Source: Candidatus Hydrogenedentota bacterium (GTDB taxonomy: Bacteria > Hydrogenedentota > Hydrogenedentia > Hydrogenedentales > SLHB01). From it: a DNA stretch of 10,939 bases. Every line of letters starts with the position of its first letter. The stretch's first letter is position 1. The position numbers and the translations under genes are program-made. The notes under the pieces were generated by a model. The model had not been told where the DNA came from. It worked only from the letters and a program-made list of their open reading frames with translations, and did not search any database. The DNA lies in the NCBI GenBank assembly GCA_045863335.1, contig BTVY01000079.1, positions 1 to 10,939 of the forward strand, given 5' to 3'. Positions 1 through 10,802 of this stretch are shown piece by piece.

Positions 1-50
1 GGCCTGTAAGGGACTTGCACCCTCAAGTGAACGCGCCCTGCCGGGCGCAC
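1..50 (-). mobile_element. 5' end of a group II intron, probably class IIC (truncated by the window edge)
   Basis: The reverse complement of 1-50 reads GTGCGCCCGGCAGGGCGCGTTCACTTGAGGGTGCAAGTCCCTTACAGGCC. It starts with the GUGYG 5' splice consensus and resembles, from memory, the 5' end of IIC introns (GUGYGCCCGGCAUGGG...AGGGUGARAGUCCC). It begins directly after a terminator-like hairpin and U-tract, the known IIC target context. No RT ORF or domain V is visible in the window. Confidence 0.75.
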
Positions 51-88
51 AAAGAGAAATGCGCTATGCCACGCAGTGCCATAGCGCA
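51..88 (-). terminator. Rho-independent terminator of ncRNA candidate 1, also the 5'-exon hairpin of the intron
   Basis: Minus strand TGCGCTATG-G-CAC-TGC-GTG-G-CATAGCGCA-TTTCTCTTT: a 9-bp stem, one mismatch and 3 further bp, followed by a U-rich tail that ends at the GTGCG intron start. Confidence 0.75.
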
Positions 89-240
89 CTCTACAGAGGG
101 TTAGACCGGCCGGACGCTTCACGTTTGCGGGCGGTGGGATTGGCCACCCCGTGCGGCTTGCGCCGAGTACGTCCTTGGGCCTATTAAAATGGGTGACATC
201 CGTGTCAGTCGACCTTGACCTCCGTGTCTCGGCCCGTGCA
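52..240 (-). ncRNA. Candidate sigma-28-dependent structured sRNA, copy 1 (~190 nt), with CsrA-type GGA hairpins
   Basis: Bounded by the sigma-28 promoter (247-273) and the terminator (51-88). Contains hairpins GAC-ACGGAG-GUC (217-228) and UGAC-ACGGAU-GUCA (194-207), a GNRA hairpin CGGC-GCAA-GCCG (154-165) and closing helices UAGGCC/GGUCUA and GGACG/CGUCC. Paralogous to 1112-1391. Ends are estimated. Confidence 0.6.
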
Positions 241-246
241 CTACCT

Positions 247-273
247 TTATCGGCAGCCCGCGAATGAACTTTA
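247..273 (-). promoter_or_regulatory. Sigma-28 (FliA/SigD/WhiG-type) promoter
   Basis: Minus strand TAAA (273-270), 15-nt spacer, GCCGATAA (254-247): an exact match to the TAAA-N15-GCCGATAA consensus, in an extended CTAAAGTT context. Confidence 0.8.
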
Positions 274-398
274 GCGGGCGAGCGTTTACGGAGATTCCGC
301 TGAAAAGACAAGGACCGACGAGGACTGCAAGGCCCGTATTTGCGACACGTGTTGGGAGAGAGGGATGGGTGCCGGGCCGCATGCTTGGCGTGGGATTC

Positions 399-436
399 TT
401 GACCGTCAGGGTGTGTTATAATTCAAGTAACAACAC
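399..436 (+). promoter_or_regulatory. TA operon promoter (extended -10) overlapped by an inverted-repeat operator
   Basis: TGtTATAAT at 414-422. Inverted repeat TGTTA (414-418)...TAACA (428-432), extendable imperfectly to 411-436, overlaps the -10 and start site, as expected for antitoxin autorepression. TTGACC at 399-404 is only 12 nt upstream of the -10. Confidence 0.55.
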
Positions 437-447
437 AAAGGTGACCC

Positions 448-672
448 ATGGATAAGCTCAAGATCCGGAGAATCGGGAACAGTTTGGGCGCGATTATCCC
501 CGCTGAGATGCTGGCTCGTCTGCACATCGCGGAGGGTGACGAGGTCCACGCCATCATCGAACCGGACGGAATCAAACTCACGCCTTACGATCCTGAATTC
601 GACGCGGCGATGGAAGCGTTCGAAACGGGCCGGCGCCGGTACCGCAACGCACTGAAAAAACTCGCGGAATGA
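448..672 (+). CDS. AbrB/MazE/SpoVT-family antitoxin (74 aa)
   Basis: N-terminal KIRRIGNSLGAIIPAEML...EGDEV is the AbrB/MazE swapped-hairpin signature. The C-terminal RYRNALKKLAE is typical of Doc-associated antitoxins. ATGA overlap with the downstream toxin. Confidence 0.9.
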   Translation: MDKLKIRRIGNSLGAIIPAEMLARLHIAEGDEVHAIIEPDGIKLTPYDPEFDAAMEAFETGRRRYRNALKKLAE

Positions 673-1067
673 TTCGTTGGATTTCGGCCCGGGCGATCCT
701 CGCGGTCCACGACGAACTTATTCGGGAACACGGCGGCACCTATGGGGTCCGTGACGAGGACGCATTGGAATCGGCGCTCGCGCGTCCGCTGAATCGTCAC
801 GCGTACGACCGCACGCAGGATTTGAATCGGCTCGCGGCGGCTCTCGGGTACGGGATTAGCCGCAATCATCCGTTCGTTGATGGCAACAAGCGGACTGCAC
901 TTATGGCGATGTTTGTGTTTCTCGATTTGAACGGGGTCGAACTCGTTGCCGCGGAGACGGAAGCTGTTGATGCCATGGAGGCACTGGCCAGTGGTTCCCT
1001 GGATGAAGACGAATTAGCGGCCTGGTTGCAGACTCATACTCGCAAACGTCCGAAGCGCGCGCGATAA
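669..1067 (+). CDS. doc: Death-on-curing (Doc, Fic-family) type II toxin (132 aa)
   Basis: Doc-type Fic motif HPFVDGNKRTA and N-terminal H...GG..GVRD..LESALARP. Translationally coupled to the antitoxin. Confidence 0.92.
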   Translation: MIRWISARAILAVHDELIREHGGTYGVRDEDALESALARPLNRHAYDRTQDLNRLAAALGYGISRNHPFVDGNKRTALMAMFVFLDLNGVELVAAETEAVDAMEALASGSLDEDELAAWLQTHTRKRPKRAR

Positions 1068-1111
1068 CACGGACGCGTGACACCGCGCAAAGACCACTCG
1101 TTAGATACCAG

Positions 1112-1150
1112 AAAAAAAGGAAGGACGCCACAACTATGGGATTGTGGCGC
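1112..1150 (-). terminator. Rho-independent terminator of ncRNA candidate 2
   Basis: Minus strand GCGCCACAAT-CCCATA-GTTGTGGCGT followed by CCTTCCTTTTTTT. The 8-bp Watson-Crick core is extended by G-U pairs that form only on the minus strand. Confidence 0.7.
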
Positions 1151-1391
1151 CACTCATGGAGGGTAAAACTATGTACACTTTTTCAGGTGTGGTGCAGGGA
1201 TGAACACCCACCTACACTGCGTGATCCCGGCGCAGGGATGATCGCCGGGTCTTCTATGCAAAGGCTTCGTGGTGGGACGACCACTCGGCCGATTTGCCGA
1301 TGGTTGGGAGGGTTTTCCTACCCAACCCCCGCATTCAACTCTCGCGACATCCGTGTCTAGTCTGCCTTGGCCTCCGTGCCTCAGCGTTCCA
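1112..1391 (-). ncRNA. Candidate sigma-28-dependent structured sRNA, copy 2 (~280 nt), with CsrA-type GGA hairpins and C-rich loops
   Basis: Lies between the promoter at 1398-1424 and the terminator at 1112-1150. Hairpins GGC-ACGGAG-GCC (1369-1380) and GAC-ACGGAU-GUC (1346-1357), then GGUUGGG/CCCAACC and UCGGC/GCCGA stems and two stems sharing the loop UCAUCCCUG. Its 5' module is homologous to that of copy 1. Confidence 0.6.
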
Positions 1392-1397
1392 CTACCT

Positions 1398-1424
1398 GTA
1401 TCGGCGATTGCGGGAAAAACTTGA
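1398..1424 (-). promoter_or_regulatory. Sigma-28-type promoter (second copy)
   Basis: Minus strand TCAA (1424-1421), 15-nt spacer, GCCGATAC (1405-1398). The boxes and flanks are conserved with the 247-273 promoter while the spacer sequence has diverged. Confidence 0.72.
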
Positions 1425-1528: not shown

Positions 1529-2377
1529 ATGCAAACACTGATTGTTGGCGCAGACGGCCAGTTGGGCCGCGAACTTATCGAAGTGTTTTCCGTGGAAGGT
1601 CCGACTACCGGAATGACTTTCGCGGAACTCGACATCCTGGATGCATCGGCGTTGCAGTACGCCGCCGACCGCGTTTCGCCGGATATAGTTGTCAATGCTG
1701 CCGCGTATACGGATGTAGAGCGCGCGGAATCCGATCGGAAGGCGGCGTTCGCGGTGAACGAGACCGGCGCGCGCAACGTGGCCGAGCTGGCGCGGGAGCG
1801 CGACATCCCAACCGTGTACTTCAGCACAGATTTTGTGTTCGACGGGTCGAAGCGGGAGCCGTACGAAGCGGACGATCTCGTATCGCCTAACGGCGTCTAC
1901 GCGGAAAGCAAGGCTGCGGGAGAAGCGGCTACGCGGGACACATGGGACAAACATTTCATCATTCGCACGGCGTGGCTTTACGGCATCGGCGGCAACAATT
2001 TCGTCGAGAAGATTCTGAAGGCGGCGGAAACGCGTCCTTCGCTGCGGGTAGTAGACGATGAGGTTGGTTCGCCGACGTATACGCGGGATCTTTCCGAGGC
2101 GACGCGGGCGTTGGCGCGTACCGCGGCATACGGCACGTATCATGGAGTGAACGGCGGCCAATGTTCGCGGTTCGAGTTTGCGCAGGAGATTCTTCGCCTC
2201 GCGGGTCTGACCAATGCGGTTGAACCGTGCCGGGCCAGCGAGTTTCCGTCGAAAGCGCCGCGCCCGGCGTATTCGGTGTTGTCGAATGCGCGGCTGGAGG
2301 CGGCCTGCGGGTTTACGATGCCCCATTGGAAAGACGCGTTGCAGCGTTTCATGCAAAAACGGGAGACGATTCAATGA
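1529..2377 (+). CDS. rfbD: dTDP-4-dehydrorhamnose reductase (RmlD)
   Basis: GADGQLG Rossmann motif, VNAAAYTDVERAE, STDFVFDG, catalytic YAESK, RTAWLYG, V.D..GSPT and APRPAYSVL are all RmlD hallmarks. Confidence 0.95.
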   Translation: MQTLIVGADGQLGRELIEVFSVEGPTTGMTFAELDILDASALQYAADRVSPDIVVNAAAYTDVERAESDRKAAFAVNETGARNVAELARERDIPTVYFSTDFVFDGSKREPYEADDLVSPNGVYAESKAAGEAATRDTWDKHFIIRTAWLYGIGGNNFVEKILKAAETRPSLRVVDDEVGSPTYTRDLSEATRALARTAAYGTYHGVNGGQCSRFEFAQEILRLAGLTNAVEPCRASEFPSKAPRPAYSVLSNARLEAACGFTMPHWKDALQRFMQKRETIQ

Positions 2378-3381
2378 AGCGTATTGTGGTCACGGGCGGC
2401 GCCGGATTTATCGGATCGAATTTCGTCCGGTACACGTTGAATACATATCCGGATGTTCACGTGGTGAACGTGGACAAGCTCACCTATGCCGGGAATTTGG
2501 ACAATCTCAAGGATCTCGATGCGAGCCGGCATACCTTTGTGCAGGCGGACATTGCGGACGCCGAGGCGATGGCCAAGGCGATGGAAGGGTGCGACGCGGT
2601 CGTCAATTTCGCGGCGGACAGTCACGTGGATCGCAGCATCATGGAAGCGTCGGATTTCATCGCGACAAACGTGCGCGGCGTGCATAACATCCTGGAAGCC
2701 GCGAAGACGCAGGGGACGAAACGCGTGCTGCTCGTGTCCACCGACGAGGTGTATGGCAGCATCGCGGAGGGATCGTTCAAGGAGACGGACCCGGTCGGCC
2801 CGCGCAATCCCTACTCCGCGAGCAAGGCGGGCGGGGAATTGCTTGGCCTTTCTTATTTCCACACCTTCGGCATTCCCGTGATCATCACACGCGGTTCGAA
2901 TACCTATGGCCCCTATCAATATCCCGAGAAGGTGCTGCCGCTTTTTGTGACCAACGCCATCGATGACGAGCCCTTGCCCCTCTATGGCGACGGCAAGAAC
3001 GTACGCGACTGGTTGTTTGTGGAGGATCATTGCCGGGGCGTGGATCACGCCTTGCGCCATGGCACGCCCGGTGAGATTTACAACGTGGCGGGTGAAAACG
3101 AGCGGGAGAACATCGCGCTGACCGCGAAGATCCTGGAATGTGTGGGCAAGGACGATTCGCTCATCCGGCCGGTCAAAGACCGTCCTGGCCACGATCGCCG
3201 GTATTCTATCGATTCATCCAAGTTGAAAGCGCTGGGATGGAAACCGCTCATGGACTGGGAAAAGGGGGTCGCCCTCACCGTAAAATGGTATCAGGAGAAC
3301 GAGTGGTGGTGGCGCAAAATCAAAAGCGGTGAATTTCTGGAATACTACAAGCGTCAGTATGCCGACCGGGGCTCCGCGTAA
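2374..3381 (+). CDS. rfbB: dTDP-glucose 4,6-dehydratase (RmlB), 335 aa
   Basis: The true start is ATG 2374 (MKRIVVTGGAGFIGSNF), with a GGGAG RBS and ATGA overlap with the rfbD stop. Motifs DKLTYAGN, FAADSHVDRSI, STDEVYG, PYSASK, YGPYQYPEK and DRPGHDRRY. Confidence 0.96.
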   Translation: MKRIVVTGGAGFIGSNFVRYTLNTYPDVHVVNVDKLTYAGNLDNLKDLDASRHTFVQADIADAEAMAKAMEGCDAVVNFAADSHVDRSIMEASDFIATNVRGVHNILEAAKTQGTKRVLLVSTDEVYGSIAEGSFKETDPVGPRNPYSASKAGGELLGLSYFHTFGIPVIITRGSNTYGPYQYPEKVLPLFVTNAIDDEPLPLYGDGKNVRDWLFVEDHCRGVDHALRHGTPGEIYNVAGENERENIALTAKILECVGKDDSLIRPVKDRPGHDRRYSIDSSKLKALGWKPLMDWEKGVALTVKWYQENEWWWRKIKSGEFLEYYKRQYADRGSA

Positions 3382-3527
3382 TCGGCCATTTACGCCTCCT
3401 TGCCGCTGCCGGAGTGAAACCTGAAGGCGCACTGGCACGTCAAAACAGTGCCAATATGGAGAGGCGTCGAATACGCGGGGATCGCGAGGTGAGAGGTACC
3501 GAGCATACGCGCTGCACGAGCAGGAGC

Positions 3528-3545
3528 ATCGGGGAATTCCCCGAT
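3528..3545. repeat. Perfect 18-bp palindrome ATCGGGGAATTCCCCGAT
   Basis: Self-complementary sequence read directly, in the 389-nt intergenic region between rfbB and the SDR gene. Function unknown. Confidence 0.6.
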
Positions 3546-3770
3546 ACAGAAGTCCGGTGGATTCAAGTATGCTAATGGTTCAGATCAAGTCTCGCCGATC
3601 GCGTGCTGCGAAGGATGGTTGAAACTTGCGGTGCGTCCTCACGTGTAATGGGAAGTCTTTGTTGGGGTAGTGTTTGGAAACCCTCTCAGGGTATAATCCC
3701 GGTCGTCGTGTTTCGACCCGCCTGTTTGGGGGACCCTGAATCAGTTGCCGAGGAACTGTAAGGATCTAAC

Positions 3771-4928
3771 GTGAAAGTCAGTCGCATACGTCGTCCGTCA
3801 ATTCTACTCACTGGTGCAACCGGCATCCTGGGAAGTTGGATACTTAACGAAGCGCTCGAGCGGGGCTATTCGCCAGTTGTGCTCATGCGCGACGAGGACC
3901 GGCCCCATGCGGAACGACGGCTCGATGCCGTTCTTCACCTTCTCGGCAAGCAAAAGATGCGACCAGAGGTCGAGATCGTGCATGGCGATGCGCGTCAAAT
4001 CGAACTAGGGCTCGATTCAGACGTATCCCGGCGGTTGCGCAATTCCGCCTCGGCATTCATCCATTGCGCGGCCTCCACGAGCTTCAATCCCAAGGACGAC
4101 GTGAATCTCTGGGAGACGAACGTGACGGGGGTGCAGAACGTCCTGGATTTCGTTTCGGACAGCGATATGGCGCTCTATCACGTGAGCACGGCGTATGTGG
4201 CCGGATCCCGGCGGGACCCGTCGTACGAATCGGAGTTGGAGGTTGGCCAGGACTTCAATAACACGTACGAGCGGAGCAAGTGCGTGTCCGAGGGGATGGT
4301 GCGCGAAGCATTCGCGGCACGCCAAACCTACGGGGCGATATTCCGGCCTTCCATCATTGTGGGCGCAACGGATCACGGCAAGATTTGCGACTTTCAGAAC
4401 TTCTACGGATTCCTGCGCCTGGTGGATATGGCGTCGTCGCGGAAGCCGAATGAGCATCGGCGAATTCGGCTTGAGGGCAACGCCGACGCCACGACCAACC
4501 TGGTGCCGGTCGATTGGACGGCCCGCGCCTTGTGGCATATCGTTGAGACTGAAGGCGACCGCTGCCAGACCTATCACCTGACGAATCCGTATCCGGACAC
4601 GGTCGGGCGTTTGAAGGAATGGGTCAACGGGGTGATCCGCGAAAGCAACACGGAATTCGAGGTGGTGCGGGAGCTGGATGGGACCCCGTCGACTCTGGAA
4701 GGGATCGCCCATTCCGCGTTTCAGCATTATCGGGTGTACCTTAAGCACCAGCCGACTTTTGACCGGACCAACACGGAGCGGGCGACGCTCAAGGCGGTTC
4801 CTTTCCCGAAACTGGGGCCGGAACTTTATGCGAAGCTCCTTAATTATGCCCGTTCCCAGCGTTGGCGCGGCGCATTGTCGCGTCATGCATTGAAGGCTAT
4901 CCCGCAGCCTGACGCAGCGGCTGTGTAG
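3771..4928 (+). CDS. Extended SDR oxidoreductase, fatty acyl-CoA/thioester reductase-like (male-sterility/NAD_binding_4 type)
   Basis: ILLTGATGILG, IHCAA, YHVSTAYVAG, catalytic NTYERSK, IFRPSIIVG and NLVPVD motifs. GTG start with AAGGA RBS. TATAAT at 3692-3697. Confidence 0.8.
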   Translation: MKVSRIRRPSILLTGATGILGSWILNEALERGYSPVVLMRDEDRPHAERRLDAVLHLLGKQKMRPEVEIVHGDARQIELGLDSDVSRRLRNSASAFIHCAASTSFNPKDDVNLWETNVTGVQNVLDFVSDSDMALYHVSTAYVAGSRRDPSYESELEVGQDFNNTYERSKCVSEGMVREAFAARQTYGAIFRPSIIVGATDHGKICDFQNFYGFLRLVDMASSRKPNEHRRIRLEGNADATTNLVPVDWTARALWHIVETEGDRCQTYHLTNPYPDTVGRLKEWVNGVIRESNTEFEVVRELDGTPSTLEGIAHSAFQHYRVYLKHQPTFDRTNTERATLKAVPFPKLGPELYAKLLNYARSQRWRGALSRHALKAIPQPDAAAV

Positions 4929-4970
4929 CGGTATCAGGCCGTAGCGTCCCCATACCCCTTCCTGGAATAG

Positions 4971-4994
4971 GGCATTCTTCGTCAAAGGAATGCC
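4971..4994 (+). terminator. Hairpin downstream of the SDR gene, possible weak terminator
   Basis: GGCATTC...GAATGCC stem. The T-rich tract lies about 10 nt downstream rather than adjacent. Confidence 0.3.
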
Positions 4995-5130
4995 GACCCC
5001 TGCCTTTTGTGTTTTCACCCTGATGGGAATGGCTGCGGCTTACGTTGACTTCGCAGCTGTGCCTATCCTAAGGTATTGGCATAATTTGATGTAGCGGATA
5101 TCGCGCTGCGAACCGCGCGGCAAGGTTGGT

Positions 5131-6249
5131 ATGAAATTCCTGGCACCATTGTACGGGGTCGTTCTTTGTCTGACGGCCATTCTTCTCACCCGTTGCGGCG
5201 GCCCAGTCGCCGTCAAGGAGATTACCGAGACGCGGACGATTGAGGGGCCTGTCGCCGTTCCCGCTAACCTGACTTCCGCGCAACGTTTCGGTATGCGAAC
5301 GGCCGCCACGCCCGCCGCCCAAGACGGCCTCCCCTTTACCTACGATGTCCCCGGCGGTTGGACGACTGCCCCGGCGAACTCCATGCGCTTGATCAATCTT
5401 GTGCCGGCGGGCGACCCGCGCGCGGAGTGTTACGTCACCATTTTGCCGGGCGAGGGGGGCGGCGTGGATGCCAACGTGAACCGGTGGCGAAATCAGATGT
5501 CGCTGGAACCGTATACGAACGAGGAACTCGAGGCGCTTCCGAAGCGCGAGTTGCTCGGCGCCGAGGCGATTTACGTAGAGTTTGAAGGCGAATACACGGG
5601 GATGAGCGGGGACCAGAGCGAACCGGACTATAAGCTCCTCGGTCTTATTCTCCCGTTGAACAACAGCGGCATGTTCATCAAGATGCTGGGGCCGAAGGGC
5701 CTTATCGAACAAGAGTCCGGCAACTTTGAAGCGTTCTGCGCGTCCTTTCGGATTCGGCAAGACGCAGCCGCGCAGCCGGCCGCTACCCCGTCAGACGGCG
5801 GACATTCCCACCCGGATGGATTGGAAGTAACCTGGACTGCGCCCGAAGGCTGGAACAAGACGGCAGATCGTCCCATGCGGGCGGTCACGTTCACGATGGG
5901 CGAGAACGATTCCACCGAATGCTACGTGAGCGTGTTTCCGGGCGGCGCGGGTGGCCTGGTTCCGAACATCAACCGCTGGGCGCGCCAGATCGGGGCCGAA
6001 CCCCTGACCGAACCGATGATCGCGGAAATGCCGATGGTGACCATCATGGGTTCTCCGGCGCCTTTGGTCGAGTTCTCGGGATCGTTCAGCGACAGCATGA
6101 GCGGAATCGAAGTGGCAGACGCGACGCTGTTGGGCACGATCGGGGAACACGCGGGGCATTCCATCTTCGTGAAAATGGTGGGGCCAGCGGCGGAAGTGGC
6201 GGCGCAGAAGGAGCGATTTGTCGCGTTCTGCGAATCCATCACTCACTAA
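5131..6249 (+). CDS. Uncharacterised exported protein (possible lipoprotein) with two tandem homologous domains, first gene of the ccs locus
   Basis: Hydrophobic N-terminus ending LLTRCGG (non-canonical lipobox). Repeated motifs P.GW......MR, ECYV..PG..GG...N.NRW..Q, F.KM.GP and F.AFC.S occur at a 164-aa offset. 18-nt gap to resB. Confidence 0.8.
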   Translation: MKFLAPLYGVVLCLTAILLTRCGGPVAVKEITETRTIEGPVAVPANLTSAQRFGMRTAATPAAQDGLPFTYDVPGGWTTAPANSMRLINLVPAGDPRAECYVTILPGEGGGVDANVNRWRNQMSLEPYTNEELEALPKRELLGAEAIYVEFEGEYTGMSGDQSEPDYKLLGLILPLNNSGMFIKMLGPKGLIEQESGNFEAFCASFRIRQDAAAQPAATPSDGGHSHPDGLEVTWTAPEGWNKTADRPMRAVTFTMGENDSTECYVSVFPGGAGGLVPNINRWARQIGAEPLTEPMIAEMPMVTIMGSPAPLVEFSGSFSDSMSGIEVADATLLGTIGEHAGHSIFVKMVGPAAEVAAQKERFVAFCESITH

Positions 6250-6267
6250 GGGGCGACGGGTAACACG

Positions 6268-7458
6268 ATGATGACCATGGCAGTAAAACGCACCATTGAC
6301 TTCCTCGCTTCCTACGGGTTTGCGTGCGTGATTTTCCTCTTCATGCTGCTCCTTACGTTCCTGGGAACGCTGGAGCAGACCACACAGGGGCTATTCGAGG
6401 TTCAGAAGAAATACTTCGAGTCGCTCTTCGTGATTCATTGGGCCTTCGATCTCATCCCGCTCCCCCTGCCGGGCGTTTACTTGCTCCTGGTGCTGTTCTG
6501 CATCAACCTCGTATTGGGCGGAATCATCCGGATGCGGAAGGGCAAGAATACCTTCGGCAATCTCATCATTCACCTCGGAATGGTCCTGCTGATTCTTGGA
6601 GGAGGCATCAAGTACTGGTTCGCCATAGACGGCCATATGACCCTTGCCGAGAACGAGAGCAGCAACGAGTTTGAGAGTTACTACCTGTGGGAGATCACGG
6701 TGACCCCGGTTTCCGGGAAAAGCGGAGCGAAGACGTATGTCATCGATCATGAGGATTTCGCGCACCTCGCCCCCAAGGAGTCGGTCACGTTTCGCCATCC
6801 GGACTTGCCCTTCAATCTGACGATTGACGGGTTTCAGCGAAACGCGATACCCATGATGGCGGGTCCCATGGTGGCAGACCAGTATCGAACGGTGGACGGG
6901 TTCTTCCTCCAGGACAGTCCTTTGGAGAAGGAAGCGGAGTTTAACCGGGCGGGCGCGTACGCGACGGTAATCGATCCAGAATCGGGTGAATCCCAGGAGG
7001 CAATCCTGTGGGGCGTTCAGTTGTACCCCGCGACGTTTGACGTGGATGGAACGACGTGGGCGGTGGACATGCATCGGAAGCGGTATCCCCTCCCCTTTAC
7101 GATCACCCTCGACAAGTTCACACACGAATTGCATCCGCGCACGCAGATGGCGCGAACCTTCATGAGCGACGTGACGAAAACGGAGAGCGGGGTCGATCAG
7201 GCGATTAAGATTACTATGAACGAGCCCCTGCGACACGAGGGATACACGTTCTACCAAGCGTCGTGGCAGCCTGCCGATCCGGCTCGCGGCACGCCGGTGA
7301 GGTCCACGTTGGCGGTCGTAAAGGACCCGGCGGATCGAATTCCGCTCTATTCTTGCATCGTGATTACCTTTGGTTTAGTCCTTCACTTCTGTTTGAAACT
7401 TTCCCGGCACTTGCGGCGCGAGAGCCGGCGTCTGGAATCCAGGGAGGCATTGGCATGA
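6268..7458 (+). CDS. resB: Cytochrome c biogenesis protein ResB/CcsB (System II)
   Basis: Three N-terminal hydrophobic segments with LTFLGTLEQ and the conserved TM His (IIHLG), a large soluble domain with LPFTITLDKF and MNEPLRHEGYTFYQAS, and a C-terminal TM after DP. The exact start among ATGs at 6268, 6271 and 6277 is uncertain. Confidence 0.85.
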   Translation: MMTMAVKRTIDFLASYGFACVIFLFMLLLTFLGTLEQTTQGLFEVQKKYFESLFVIHWAFDLIPLPLPGVYLLLVLFCINLVLGGIIRMRKGKNTFGNLIIHLGMVLLILGGGIKYWFAIDGHMTLAENESSNEFESYYLWEITVTPVSGKSGAKTYVIDHEDFAHLAPKESVTFRHPDLPFNLTIDGFQRNAIPMMAGPMVADQYRTVDGFFLQDSPLEKEAEFNRAGAYATVIDPESGESQEAILWGVQLYPATFDVDGTTWAVDMHRKRYPLPFTITLDKFTHELHPRTQMARTFMSDVTKTESGVDQAIKITMNEPLRHEGYTFYQASWQPADPARGTPVRSTLAVVKDPADRIPLYSCIVITFGLVLHFCLKLSRHLRRESRRLESREALA

Positions 7459-9545
7459 GGGCGGCAACCCCAATAGTGCTTGCGATCGTTGCGGCATTCT
7501 GCTCCGGCTTGGCATGGGGGCAATCCGCGGAACTGGTGACGAAACCGATCGACTGGGACAAGGAAACGATCGAACTCTTCTCGACACTTCCCGTTCAGGA
7601 CGGCGGCCGCATCAAGCCGTTGAGCACGTACGCGGGGTTTGCGCTATTAAAGCTGAACGGCAAACGCACCACCAACGATCTCGATGACAACCGTATCGAG
7701 CCGATGGAATGGCTGCTCGATACGATGTTTTTTCCCGAGACCGCCGAGCATTACAAGATTTTTCTCATCCAGAACTCGGAGGTGCTCGATGCCATCGGTG
7801 TGAGCCACGACGATCGCAAGAAGCGGGATCGGTTCTCCATGGCGGAATTGACGCCGGGCGTCGGCAAGCTCTACGAGTTGGGCCGCGAGTACTCTGACGA
7901 GACGAAATACGATCAGGACAAACTTACGTCGACACAACGGCAAATCATCAATCTTGCGTCAAACGTCTTTCAATATCAGCAATTGAGCCACTACCTGGAT
8001 TTCGCCCGCCACGAGTTCACGATTCCGGAAGGCTCCGCACTCGCTGCCGTGCTGCCGGAGAACCGGTATAGCGCCATTCTGGACAAGGCGGTCACGCTGC
8101 GGCTGTTGACCCTTGCGCTGGAACGGGGCATGGACGCCGTGACGGAACGGCTGGCGCCCGCCGAAGTCGAGCGGCTTCATGAGGTATTGCCGCCAGAACT
8201 GGGGCAACTGGACGACGCGACGCGCGAGAAGAATCTCGGGGACCTCCGGCAGTTGCTTCACGAACTCGACATCATGTCGAGCCGCGCGTCAGGGCTGGCG
8301 CTTTTCCCGCCGACCGAAGGCCTGGGGGACCAGGAGCACTGGATGGCCCCGGGCGAAATGGCGGATCTCGCGTTCACTGCCGGGGCACCCATAGAAGGCG
8401 AGTTGGCTCTTGTGCGCTCGTTGGAAGACGTGGCGCGCTCGCCGGAGCAACCGCAGACGCTCAAGACCGAGCTTGCGCAGTTCCACGATGCGGTCGTGGG
8501 ACTCGCGAAGGCGCGCGGCGAGTACGGCAAAGTGCCGCTCGAGGTCAACTACTACAACCTGAACTTGCTCCTCTGGAGTCTGATGCTGTTTGTGTTGGCC
8601 TTCGTCGTGGCCGCGGTGTCCTGGATGGTCCCTTACAGTAAAGGAATGAGCAAGATATACCCGCTCTTCCTGGCGCCGCCGGGCATAATTCTGATCGCCG
8701 CCATCACGTACCGTTGCATCATTCGCGGCCGCCCGCCGGTGAGCACTTTGTATGAAACAATTCTGTTCATCACCGCCGTGATTGTGGTGGTGGCGTTCAT
8801 TATCGAGTACATGAACCGGCAGAAGATCGCCTTTTCCCTGGGCGCGCTGCTGGGGATGATGGGACTGTTTCTCGCGTACCGGTATGAGGCCAAAGAAGGC
8901 GTCGATACGATGCCGAGCTTGATCGCCGTGCTCGATACGAACTTCTGGCTTGCGACCCACGTGACCACGGTCACCATGGGGTATGCCGCAGGCCTCTTTG
9001 CCGGCGCGATCGCTCACGTGTACATTCTCGGAAGGCTCTTCGGCTTCCGGCGCGAGGATAAGGGGTTCTACAAATCCGTCTCGCGGATGACCTACGGCGT
9101 GCTGTGTTTCGGCCTGGTATTCTCGGTCGTGGGGACGGTGCTCGGCGGGATCTGGGCGAATGACAGTTGGGGCCGGTTCTGGGGTTGGGATCCCAAGGAA
9201 AACGGGGCGCTGATGATCGTGCTTTGGGAGTTGGCGATCCTGCACGGGCGGCTCGGCGGCTATATTCGCGATCTGGGTGTGGCAATAGCCAGCGTATTCT
9301 GCGGAATCATTGTGGCCTTTTCCTGGTGGGGCGTGAATTTGCTCGGCGTCGGGCTGCACAGCTACGGATTCACCAGCGGGGTCATGCAGGCCTTGATTAT
9401 CTTCTACTCCATCGAGGCCTTCGTGATCTTGTTGGGGTTTGCCGTGTGGTACATGCAACGGCGCGCCGTGCCGGAGCCGGTACCGGCGCCGGACAAGAAG
9501 AAGCGGCGGGTAAAAGGGCCACTGCCGGCAAAGGCGTCGAAATAG
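7455..9545 (+). CDS. ccsA: Cytochrome c biogenesis protein CcsA/ResC with a large N-terminal periplasmic domain (696 aa)
   Basis: The start is ATG 7455 (GGGAGG RBS, ATGA overlap with the resB stop, signal peptide). WWD domain WANDSWGRFWGWDPKE, conserved His in WLATHV, LHGR and GLHSY, RPPVSTLYE, and multiple TM helices. Confidence 0.93.
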   Translation: MRAATPIVLAIVAAFCSGLAWGQSAELVTKPIDWDKETIELFSTLPVQDGGRIKPLSTYAGFALLKLNGKRTTNDLDDNRIEPMEWLLDTMFFPETAEHYKIFLIQNSEVLDAIGVSHDDRKKRDRFSMAELTPGVGKLYELGREYSDETKYDQDKLTSTQRQIINLASNVFQYQQLSHYLDFARHEFTIPEGSALAAVLPENRYSAILDKAVTLRLLTLALERGMDAVTERLAPAEVERLHEVLPPELGQLDDATREKNLGDLRQLLHELDIMSSRASGLALFPPTEGLGDQEHWMAPGEMADLAFTAGAPIEGELALVRSLEDVARSPEQPQTLKTELAQFHDAVVGLAKARGEYGKVPLEVNYYNLNLLLWSLMLFVLAFVVAAVSWMVPYSKGMSKIYPLFLAPPGIILIAAITYRCIIRGRPPVSTLYETILFITAVIVVVAFIIEYMNRQKIAFSLGALLGMMGLFLAYRYEAKEGVDTMPSLIAVLDTNFWLATHVTTVTMGYAAGLFAGAIAHVYILGRLFGFRREDKGFYKSVSRMTYGVLCFGLVFSVVGTVLGGIWANDSWGRFWGWDPKENGALMIVLWELAILHGRLGGYIRDLGVAIASVFCGIIVAFSWWGVNLLGVGLHSYGFTSGVMQALIIFYSIEAFVILLGFAVWYMQRRAVPEPVPAPDKKKRRVKGPLPAKASK

Positions 9546-9776
9546 GATTCGTGCTCGCTTTGAGGCTGTAGCACCCTCCATCAAGGGAATCTGATGGGTT
9601 GCAACCGTCAGCGGGGCTGATTTCTATTGAGTTGCAGACCGGCCTTCGCGTAGAATCGCGCCGTGTTTTTGCATGTAAGGTTAAGTGGTGACCTGCGTGA
9701 AGGCGCGGCAAGCCGCGTTGCAGCGTACCGCAGTCGGGATCTGGGTCTGTCACGATGAACTCTGGGAGGAGAGGGA

Positions 9777-10802
9777 ATGATCACGTTGGATAGTCGTCGC
9801 TCGATAGTTCAGCTTGTTGCCATTTTGACGTGTGCCGCGGTGCTCGTCTTCGGATCCGCTCCAGCGGAAGCGGGGATTCTGAAGAAGCTCACCGGAGGCG
9901 GAGGGGAAGAAGAATCCGCGTCCGAGCCGGCCGAGGAATCGGCGCCGGCCCCGGCGCCTCACTCGGGACCCAAGCAGGTCGTGGCCGTGGGCGCCTTCGA
10001 GGGCGCTGGGAAATTGGGTTGGGACGAAGGTCCCGTGATGGCGGCCATGCTGCAGGATCAGTTGATGCAGAGCGGCCGGTTTGTGGTGGTCGAACGCCAG
10101 CAGTTGGATTCGATCCTCCAAGAGCAGGATCTGGGCGCGGCGGGCCGGATTAATTCCGAGACCGCCCTGAAGATCGGGCAGATCGTCGGCGCCAGTATCA
10201 TGATCCAAGGCACGGTGACGCAGTTTGAACCTGGAGAAGAAGGCAAGAGCGGCCGCGTGAACATTCCGATCGGCGGCGTCGGCCTTGGAGTTGGCGGCAG
10301 CAAGGTTACGTCCAAGGTCGCCATGCAGCTTCGCATCATCGACCTGACGACTTCGCAGGTGTTGTCCACGCACAAGGCGGAACACACCGGCACGCACAAA
10401 TCGATGGGCATGGACGTGTACACGAGCGTCGGCAGCGCGGGCGGCGATCAATTCAAGAAGACGCCCCTGGGCGAAACCGCGGAAGAGTGTATCGCGAAGT
10501 GCGTCGATCACATCATTTCGACGATGGCCAACGTTCCCTTCTCGGCGCGCGTGGCGGAAGTGGACGGCAGCAGCATCTACATCAATGCCGGCAGTAACCG
10601 CGGCATGACAGAAGGCACGGTGCTGACCCTGTACAAGACGGGGAAGATCATAACGGACCCGGACACGGGCCTGGCGTTGGACGTGAAGTTGGAGCGCACG
10701 GGTTCGGTGAAGGTTGATTCCGTTCAGGAAAAGATTTCGGTCTGCTCGCTGGTGGACGGCCAGATGCCAAAACGCGGCGATACGCTGAAGATCGATAAGT
10801 AA
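9777..10802 (+). CDS. CsgG/HfaB-family exported protein with a FlgT-like C-terminal beta domain
   Basis: Signal peptide (…APAEA). CsgG-like core L.QSGRFVVVERQQLDSILQEQDL...G.I...TA.KIGQ..GA...I.G.VTQF. C-terminal IYINAGS..G...G..L typical of FlgT_C-like domains. Strong GGAGG RBS. Confidence 0.8.
   Translation: MITLDSRRSIVQLVAILTCAAVLVFGSAPAEAGILKKLTGGGGEEESASEPAEESAPAPAPHSGPKQVVAVGAFEGAGKLGWDEGPVMAAMLQDQLMQSGRFVVVERQQLDSILQEQDLGAAGRINSETALKIGQIVGASIMIQGTVTQFEPGEEGKSGRVNIPIGGVGLGVGGSKVTSKVAMQLRIIDLTTSQVLSTHKAEHTGTHKSMGMDVYTSVGSAGGDQFKKTPLGETAEECIAKCVDHIISTMANVPFSARVAEVDGSSIYINAGSNRGMTEGTVLTLYKTGKIITDPDTGLALDVKLERTGSVKVDSVQEKISVCSLVDGQMPKRGDTLKIDK

Follow-up and report, generated by a model that had tools for sequence, protein, structure and literature searches.

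The window, i.e., the whole stretch of 10,939 nucleotides analysed here (contig BTVY01000079.1 of a Candidatus Hydrogenedentota bacterium, whose genome, G000, has a size of 6.75 Mb and a completeness of 99.4%), carries between rmlD and a truA-like gene two units that, judged from their sequence, are minus-strand sigma-28 RNA genes running from about 1391 to 1112 (copy B) and from about 240 to 51 (copy A). Copy B (1112..1391, about 280 nt) is kept at full length in 5/5 congeners and copy A (51..240, about 190 nt) at near full length in 5/5, and both are represented by contigs from RNA libraries. Compared with shuffled sequences the single-sequence fold of copy B is better (z -3.5), that of copy A is not (z -1.3). 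The initial annotation of this DNA had described the units as paralogous, which was borne out: on the minus strand positions 195-276 and 1346-1427 are alike in 61/83 alignment columns, and BLAST matches the copies at 82% over 61 nt (E ~1e-7). Sigma-28-type boxes had been claimed ahead of both units as well, and both carry the strict pattern T[AC]AA-N15-GCCGATA, which occurs 13 times across the genome. The promoter of copy B (1398..1424, minus strand) consists of the -35 box TCAA (1424-1421), a 15-nt spacer and the -10 box GCCGATAC (1405-1398), that of copy A (247..273, minus strand) of TAAA (273-270) and GCCGATAA (254-247), placing the probable start sites at about 1391 and about 240. The boxes were called by the sigma-28 consensus. 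Among family members fetched with a pattern that does not require the -35 box, T[AC]AA is found at 15 or 16 nt in 86/88.

Downstream of the promoters both RNAs start with two hairpins that expose an ANGGA motif in the loop, as expected for sites bound by CsrA. In copy B hairpin 1 (1364..1385) has a CANGGAN loop and a stem in two parts that includes a purine-rich internal loop, and hairpin 2 (1345..1358) reads GAC-ACGGAU-GUC; in copy A they lie at 212-233 and 194-207. In hairpin 1 the reported compensatory change was read as claimed, the stem being GAC/GUC in copy A and GGC/GCC in copy B around an ACGGAG loop in both, and so was the identity of hairpin 2 in the two copies. In the family alignment 3/6 pairs of hairpin 1 covary, with 97.6-98.9% of the cells paired; GGA lies in the loops of two CANGGANG hairpins of which stem 1 covaries. 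The stem of hairpin 2 never varies, its three pairs being unchanged in 58/58 aligned members, and hence gives covariation evidence neither way. Each unit ends in its own terminator, as had likewise been proposed: hairpins with a U-rich tail lie at 1151-1112 and 88-51. On its own, a terminator scan performed at chance level (2 found, 1.9 expected); in the family alignment 8/10 pairs of the terminator stem covary.

Altogether 127 members of the family were collected, redundant kin included, with a median length of about 171 nt. They follow a common order of promoter, hairpin 1, hairpin 2, one to three hairpins with RUCCC loops, a pyrimidine-rich seed ending GAGUG-like and the terminator. At least two CsrA-type hairpins are present at the 5' end of 109/127 members, one in 2 and none in 16; within the 5' 95 nt there are two in 108/127 members and three in 1, and in a few members additional ones lie further inside the RNA. 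No part of the family is conserved more than these two hairpins. Their GGA-to-GGA spacing of 18-26 nt, or about 21 nt, compares with the 18-21 nt described for the two sites of a CsrA dimer (PMC4894983), and by their anatomy they would fit one CsrA dimer; many sites for several dimers were not found, most members carrying two hairpins. RUCCC loops occur in 89/109 members (mean of 17 in shuffles) with a mean unpaired probability of 0.87, and in alignment-free folds UCCC is looped in 108/143 cases. The central AUCCC hairpin is missing from the RNAalifold consensus and a hand-set register pairs only 61.6% of its cells, because the loop sizes differ. In copy B three such hairpins are predicted as local folds (1269-1284, 1226-1249 and 1186-1212; span 1186..1284), followed by the seed (1149..1173) and the terminator (1112..1151); in copy A there is an AUCCC hairpin at 129-150, a seed at 87-107 and the terminator at 51-88.

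The initial annotation did not recognise the family, and a search of Rfam returned no match at E<=5 in the window and none at gathering score in seven homologous loci. The proposed covariance model was built and scanned over the genome and its relatives. A third copy was not found in the 6.75 Mb of G000 by a two-copy 5' profile (next match E 0.21), by the covariance model or by a 3' profile; the weak covariance-model matches there are sigma-28 promoters or leaders of genes. Among 41 relatives copy B was matched in 18 and copy A in 31 at E<=0.1. An exact pattern, applied to one genome per species, gave 73 loci, 52 of them titled Ca. Hydrogenedent- and the other 21, by record title, belonging to uncultured Nitrospiraceae/Nitrospirales (17) and to bacteria or metagenome (4). 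A model of promoter plus hairpins matched 105 of the 135 genomes of the uncultured phylum Hydrogenedentota, 98 of them at E<=1e-10, and a flagellin was found in 104/135. Strong match and flagellin coincide in 96 genomes, a strong match alone occurs in 2 (60% and 80% complete), a flagellin alone in 8 and neither in 29; as the model contains the promoter and losses are confined to a few clades, this co-occurrence is a pattern and not a statistic. In genus g46 (G124-G127) csrA is kept and neither flagellin nor RNA is present in 4/4 genomes (78-91% complete), where CsrA may have a non-flagellar role. In terms of sequence we are thus dealing with an uncatalogued, phylum-wide family of what are taken to be stand-alone small RNA (sRNA) genes.

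A hint, not a proof, that two discrete RNAs are made from the locus comes from sequencing runs. Twenty-two runs were listed as holding part of the stretch, and four of them (X1-X4) were mapped on positions 1-2400. X2, an RNA library by guess, has contigs at 94-226 and 1169-1370, X3 at 89-230 and 1162-1369, and X4 one at 1113-1375 plus 31 loose letters past the terminator; the copy A contigs 94-226 and 89-230 have adapter at each end. These contigs stem from three studies, are of the organism or a close relative and leave the promoters, the toxin-antitoxin (TA) genes between the copies and rmlD all uncovered. Further X4 contigs that match the TA and rmlD genes are fragments of 18-32 nt from other organisms, and X1, which covers all 2.4 kb in the manner of DNA, is uninformative on transcription.

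The initial annotation had also asked for csrA, fliW and fliA to be confirmed in the genome; all were found, FliW being encoded next to CsrA, together with FliA and four flagellins (a fifth, weaker Flagellin_N match is a 462-aa frame). A link to these flagellins came from the 3' half of copy B. When the whole copy B region was compared with the genome by BLAST, the best match other than the paralogue was the start of a flagellin gene (E 0.001), and positions 1173-1149 are complementary at 24/25 nt to C5:50075-50099, the stretch comprising the CsrA site, the Shine-Dalgarno (SD) sequence and the AUG of flagellin C5:50097. This seed was picked after the BLAST match and before it was ranked against 44,971 ATG windows of the genome, where C5:50097 took rank 1 at -46.0 kcal/mol (next window -35.1 kcal/mol) and a second flagellin rank 7. 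The second-best partner (G000:C12:85206, minus strand, -35.1 kcal/mol) encodes a cysteine-rich protein of 162 amino acids with a signal-peptide-like start, for which a flagellar role is not evident. The gene of flagellin C5:50097 follows another flagellin gene, precedes flaG and lacks a sigma-28 box of its own. Moreover, the RUCCC loops of copy B are complementary to the AGGGAUG loop of a CsrA hairpin and to the AUGGGA start in the flagellin mRNA: two loops are predicted to pair with the hairpin loop of the leader, and the third together with the terminator loop UCCCAUAG, which is complementary to CUAUGGGA at the flagellin start, with AUGGGA (predicted loop duplexes of -10.7 to -16.2 kcal/mol). 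The paired stretches of the leader are its two CsrA sites. Whole-RNA duplex folding against flagellin leaders was uninformative. Throughout the phylum CANGGAG stands at the SD of 105/110 flagellin leaders and GGGAY upstream in 68/110, and AUGGGA starts 86/110 flagellins, compared to 36/3,581 control windows.

Whether this complementarity follows the flagellins from genome to genome was examined with flagellin clusters from 40 regions and RNA loci from 40 more, yielding 110 flagellin starts and 91 candidate RNAs. Ten of the 91 were dropped by eye (five hairpin-less non-members, one flagellin leader and four two-hairpin RNAs with atypical 3' parts); 56 of the remaining 81 come from genomes with at least two flagellin starts and formed the test set, in which four mis-anchored seeds were reset. 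A flagellin of the own genome was paired better than the other-genus median by 48/56 seeds, and the cognate flagellin beats 99% of 400 GGAGG-bearing control windows from G000 for 48/56. Permuting the flagellin sets over 18 genera, the observed mean of -32.9 compares with -28.5 +/- 0.6, and 0/20,000 permutations were as good. The same holds without the discovery genus (0/20,000), inside one family (1/720), with one genome per family (2/40,320), with other representatives (0/20,000) and on the variable SD-to-AUG spacer alone (14/20,000), whereas a control segment of the same RNAs gives no signal (4,930/20,000). Long perfect runs over spacer and AUG are found in G018, G070 and G040. Paralogues prefer different flagellins in 14/17 listed genomes with several RNAs, an outcome that is often to be expected at random; in G030 and G094 three RNAs have three different preferred flagellins each. 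In most members the 3' half is thus complementary to flagellin starts and covaries with them genome by genome.

The initial annotation had suggested that these units may be flagellin leaders without a flagellin, i.e., CsrA-titrating RNAs. As a whole account this falls short, as it leaves the conserved 3' half with its complementarity to flagellin translation starts unexplained. In its pure form it states that the RNA titrates CsrA off flagellar mRNAs and that the C-rich 3' half is only structure or a generic anti-SD. In its favor, the two hairpins are what the family conserves most, their loops fit CANGGANG, and some members are without a recognisable seed, i.e., the four excluded RNAs, next to copy A with its weak one. 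However, seed and flagellin spacer covary in a genome-specific manner, and the 16/127 members that lack the CsrA hairpins still keep the C-rich 3' part. Moreover, two sites per RNA are few compared with the up to 9 and 5 CsrA described as bound by CsrB and CsrC (PMC10729762) and with the 14 ANGGA motifs in a single flagellin leader of the same genome, so that we regard a role as sponge alone as improbable.

The leader in question (G000:C5:48567-49072, L126) is a 506-nt sigma-28 leader of the second flagellin (C5:49073), in which 1.9 ANGGA motifs are expected; from its sequence it would be a CsrB-like sponge built into a flagellin mRNA. In congeners the 400 nt preceding a flagellin hold as many as 12 of these motifs, and 7-9 are found in several other families. 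The hairpin-less members, which were picked by the C-rich motif, are sigma-28 RNAs in tandem with C-rich loop, seed and terminator (16/127; L047, L046, L182, L147, L148, L202, L208, L210 and others); in G096/G097 three of them, one after the other, precede the flagellin cluster by about 2 kb. Conversely, two-hairpin RNAs with atypical 3' halves, in which an anti-flagellin seed is unrecognisable, are L193, L196, L172 and L033:1214 (minus strand), and these are possibly pure CsrA decoys within the family.

Several points weigh against a role of the RNAs in flagellin repression and have to be set beside the covariation. Eight of the 56 seeds fail to beat the other-genus median, the four two-hairpin RNAs with atypical 3' parts were excluded before the test, the flagellin sets per genome are incomplete, and kin among the tested genomes are not independent. 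Part of the pairing is generic anti-SD, and since the seeds extend over the SD of a CsrA site also found in hairpin 1, some of the complementarity could serve intramolecular folding. The library contigs carry no strand and no true ends, have depths of 3-10, and come from runs picked for holding part of the stretch. Binding, repression and the transcribed strand are all deductions from sequence, and what CsrA binding is for is a guess between two options discussed below. Copy A fits poorly: its seed reaches -23.5 with the flagellins of G000, a value that 7% of control windows equal, the flagellins rank 11,523-29,046 of 44,971 and 2,289-5,308 of 9,219 in two scans, and the two genome-wide scans for a target of copy A in G000 gave only GC-rich noise.

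The copy A seed is conserved in the genus, and with flagellins its orthologues attain -33.6 in G001 and -31.9 in G002. Its conservation despite the weak match in G000 would fit a broader antisense regulator, acting on CsrA-type sites in many sigma-28 mRNAs, flaG and others, with flagellins as best match and copy A retargeted. The short RUCCC loops could pair with any GGGAY, and flaG likewise starts AUGGGA. However, a second convincing target for copy A was absent from the scans of G000, the only genome scanned for non-flagellin targets, and the next match of copy B is C12:85206 with its cysteine-rich product, which makes such a broad regulator hardly probable.

A reading in which the units have no function was considered as well, i.e., decayed flagellin leaders, ends of mobile elements or plus-strand mini-genes. 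The plus strand of copy B resembles a flagellin leader with SD and ATG and has a frame of 74 codons, and the copies have a TA pair and a repeated element as neighbours. However, the RNA is conserved with covarying stems in at least 13 families, its terminator folds better on the sigma-28 strand in 107/127 members, and SD and ATG occur on the plus strand in only 9/109 members, the frame over copy B ranging from 17 to 74 codons among relatives. As the viral contigs searched contain no match and the TA pair is lacking in 5/7 tandem loci, a lack of function is extremely improbable. A conserved open reading frame (ORF) on either strand was rejected, in agreement with the initial annotation: next to the variable plus-strand frame, an SD-led ORF of at least 15 codons is present in 6/109 members, and the homologues end in the terminator with no ORF behind. 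Spread by phages or viruses was dropped with the same 0 matches in viral contigs.

The TA module between the copies, a MazE/AbrB-type antitoxin (448-672) and a Fic/Doc toxin (669-1067) on the plus strand (448..1067), is a real gene pair by Pfam (PF04014, PF02661). It was rejected as part of the RNA system: the distance from copy B to copy A is 871 nt in G000 and G005, whereas five other tandem loci have 74-242 nt there, so that the pair is a local passenger insertion present in 2/7 tandem loci examined. Directly behind the copy A terminator, on the minus strand, a repeated element starts (GTGCG..., 1..50), which is group IIC intron-like. Identical copies lie at contig ends of G000, 12/12 behind a hairpin and T-run, and the element is lacking at the copy A site in G001-G005. 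We presume it to be of the group IIC intron class, for which a GUGYG 5' end behind intrinsic terminators is characteristic, as seen in 12/12 copies; the copies stop at contig ends after 43-49 nt, and the reverse transcriptase family TIGR04416 was not found in the assembly. The placement of the element behind the copy A hairpin is a side hint of a working terminator. The gene convergent on copy A was read in a congener (L019:2140-2907, minus strand), and by its motifs it resembles truA. On the other side, positions 1529-10802 hold rmlD and rmlB-like genes, an SDR, a 372-aa protein without Pfam match, ResB-like and cytochrome c assembly genes and a CsgG/FlgT-like protein; as far as seen these genes are unrelated to the RNA system.

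Taken together, these data make it likely that the family consists of RNAs with a dual function, which hold one CsrA dimer and base-pair with selected flagellin messages to repress them. Pairing of an sRNA over SD and AUG is an established mechanism to block initiation of translation. Judged from the promoters, FliA, which is active late in flagellar assembly, would co-transcribe the flagellin mRNAs and the family RNAs. The C-rich loops may make the first contact, either to the upstream AGGGAUG hairpin loop or to AUGGGA at the start, whereupon the seed, located ahead of the terminator, would zip over CsrA site, SD and AUG, as suggested by the complementarity, the resulting duplex blocking ribosome loading. 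Copy B would act in this way on flagellin C5:50097. Each paralogue may damp its preferred flagellin, and in analogy to FlaX of Vibrio the paralogue set probably tunes which flagellins get made, i.e., the flagellin amounts and the make-up of the filament. Alternatively, the pairing might activate, stripping CsrA from the flagellin leader or stabilising the mRNA while the 5' hairpins catch the displaced CsrA. The duplex of up to 25 nt over SD and AUG speaks against this, as the established outcome is a block of ribosome loading, and we consider activation very improbable, even though it is the two CsrA sites of the leader that are paired, both RNA halves would then push in one direction, and UhpU and MotR of Escherichia coli were reported to raise flagellin (PMC10578931).

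For the preferred reading as repressors, the role of the two CANGGAN hairpins, which would hold one CsrA dimer, can be conceived in two ways. Provided that CsrA binds, the chance is nearly even that it protects or chaperones the RNA in a cell in which neither Hfq nor ProQ was found at 99.4% completeness; almost as probably, the RNA titrates CsrA from flagellins that it does not target, one RNA lifting some flagellins and lowering others. A stabilising or matchmaking CsrA is slightly favored because a two-site sponge is small beside the 506-nt leader with its 14 motifs. Such a chaperone role would tie repression to the FliW-CsrA checkpoint (PMC7652899, PMC13443453), with repression rising once FliW releases CsrA as flagellin piles up. 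A conformational switch, in which CsrA binding frees the seed from the GGA loops of the RNA itself, is unsupported family-wide: opening of the seed was cheaper by at least 1 kcal/mol in 13/109 members compared to 22/109 controls, copy B showing 2.0 kcal/mol. In its most far-reaching form, which is possible and yet doubtful, the RNA would be both a mimic and a mirror of the CsrA operator of flagellin, with CsrA sitting on the sense hairpins and replacing Hfq/ProQ, antisense copies of the site finding the mRNA, and two to four paralogues with flagellin-specific seeds forming an RNA code by which filament composition is set, with readout via the FliW-CsrA checkpoint.

These considerations touch on questions raised in the literature. 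According to Zere et al., fliW is lacking in those species for which CsrA-inhibitory sRNAs are known, and whether species with FliW use them was left undecided (PMC4682653), and Dugar et al. call a cooperation of FliW with RNA-based control unknown, an mRNA and not an sRNA being found to act in this way (PMC4894983). The family offers a direct test, as a conserved sRNA gene with CsrA hairpins is combined with csrA in the flagellated members of the phylum and with fliW beside csrA in G000; if the mimic-and-mirror reading is true, there are CsrA-binding sRNAs in a FliW lineage, where they were thought absent. Moreover, dozens of genera provide natural covarying sRNA-target pairs, which would allow an exchange of seed and target in a laboratory host, and the family suggests that filaments of several flagellins are controlled post-transcriptionally in the absence of Hfq and ProQ. 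In the full-text literature no account of the family or of any Hydrogenedentota sRNA was found, most subscription papers lying outside the search.

The closest resemblance in terms of target is to FlaX of Vibrio cholerae, an RNA of about 265 nt that pairs at multiple sites with a flagellin 5' untranslated region (UTR), prevents 30S binding and determines the composition of a filament built from several flagellins (PMC11879080). A conserved multi-site complementarity to the flagellin 5' UTR including the ribosome binding site is found for copy B and most members, and not for copy A of the window. However, FlaX is cut from the flaA 3' UTR, belongs to RpoN/class III control and depends on ProQ (PMC11879080), whereas the family comprises stand-alone sigma-28 genes with own terminators, CsrA hairpins and paralogue sets; an origin from a flagellin 3' UTR together with ProQ or Hfq was not found, as the RNAs have their own promoter at an rmlD/truA-like locus and neither protein was found in G000. 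Similarly, the E. coli sigma-28 sRNAs UhpU, MotR and FliX as well as FlgO are FliA-dependent and act on flagellin levels, which FliX lowers, and they are UTR-derived, Hfq-associated and pair inside the fliC coding sequence (PMC10578931). The family resembles them in a sigma-28 promoter, called by consensus, and fliA in the genome, and differs in pairing over SD and AUG, in that Hfq was not found and in having no sequence match in Rfam. In Campylobacter jejuni, an organism with FliW and CsrA, CJnc170/FlmR and CJnc10 are paralogous FliA-dependent sRNAs whose overexpression shortens flagella; their predicted targets are, however, class II genes such as flgE and not flagellins (PMC11187230), and a pull-down of CsrA from this organism was reported to enrich no sRNA (PMC4894983).

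With CsrB/CsrC and RsmX/Y/Z the family shares GGA motifs in hairpin loops of an untranslated RNA. Those RNAs, however, are described as having many sites, as BarA-UvrY-driven, as found in Gammaproteobacteria and as anti-correlated with fliW (PMC4682653, PMC7652899), whereas here two sites, sigma-28 and fliW are present and an antisense arm is added; the promoters are not of the BarA-UvrY/GacS-GacA type, being sigma-28-type (the BarA/UvrY genes were not searched for). Finally, McaS of E. coli (PMC10729762) and SR1 of Bacillus subtilis (PMC6546359) are base-pairing sRNAs that also bind CsrA, and for SR1 it was shown that CsrA promotes the pairing with its target (PMC6546359); as far as seen, they are not described as sigma-28-driven, as directed to flagellin starts or as pairing with the CsrA sites of the target. 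By these membership features the family stands outside the CsrB/Rsm RNAs and outside the UTR-derived, Hfq- or ProQ-bound flagellar sRNAs, and by analogy it would act like FlaX and FliX in its target and like McaS and SR1 in joining CsrA binding with base pairing.

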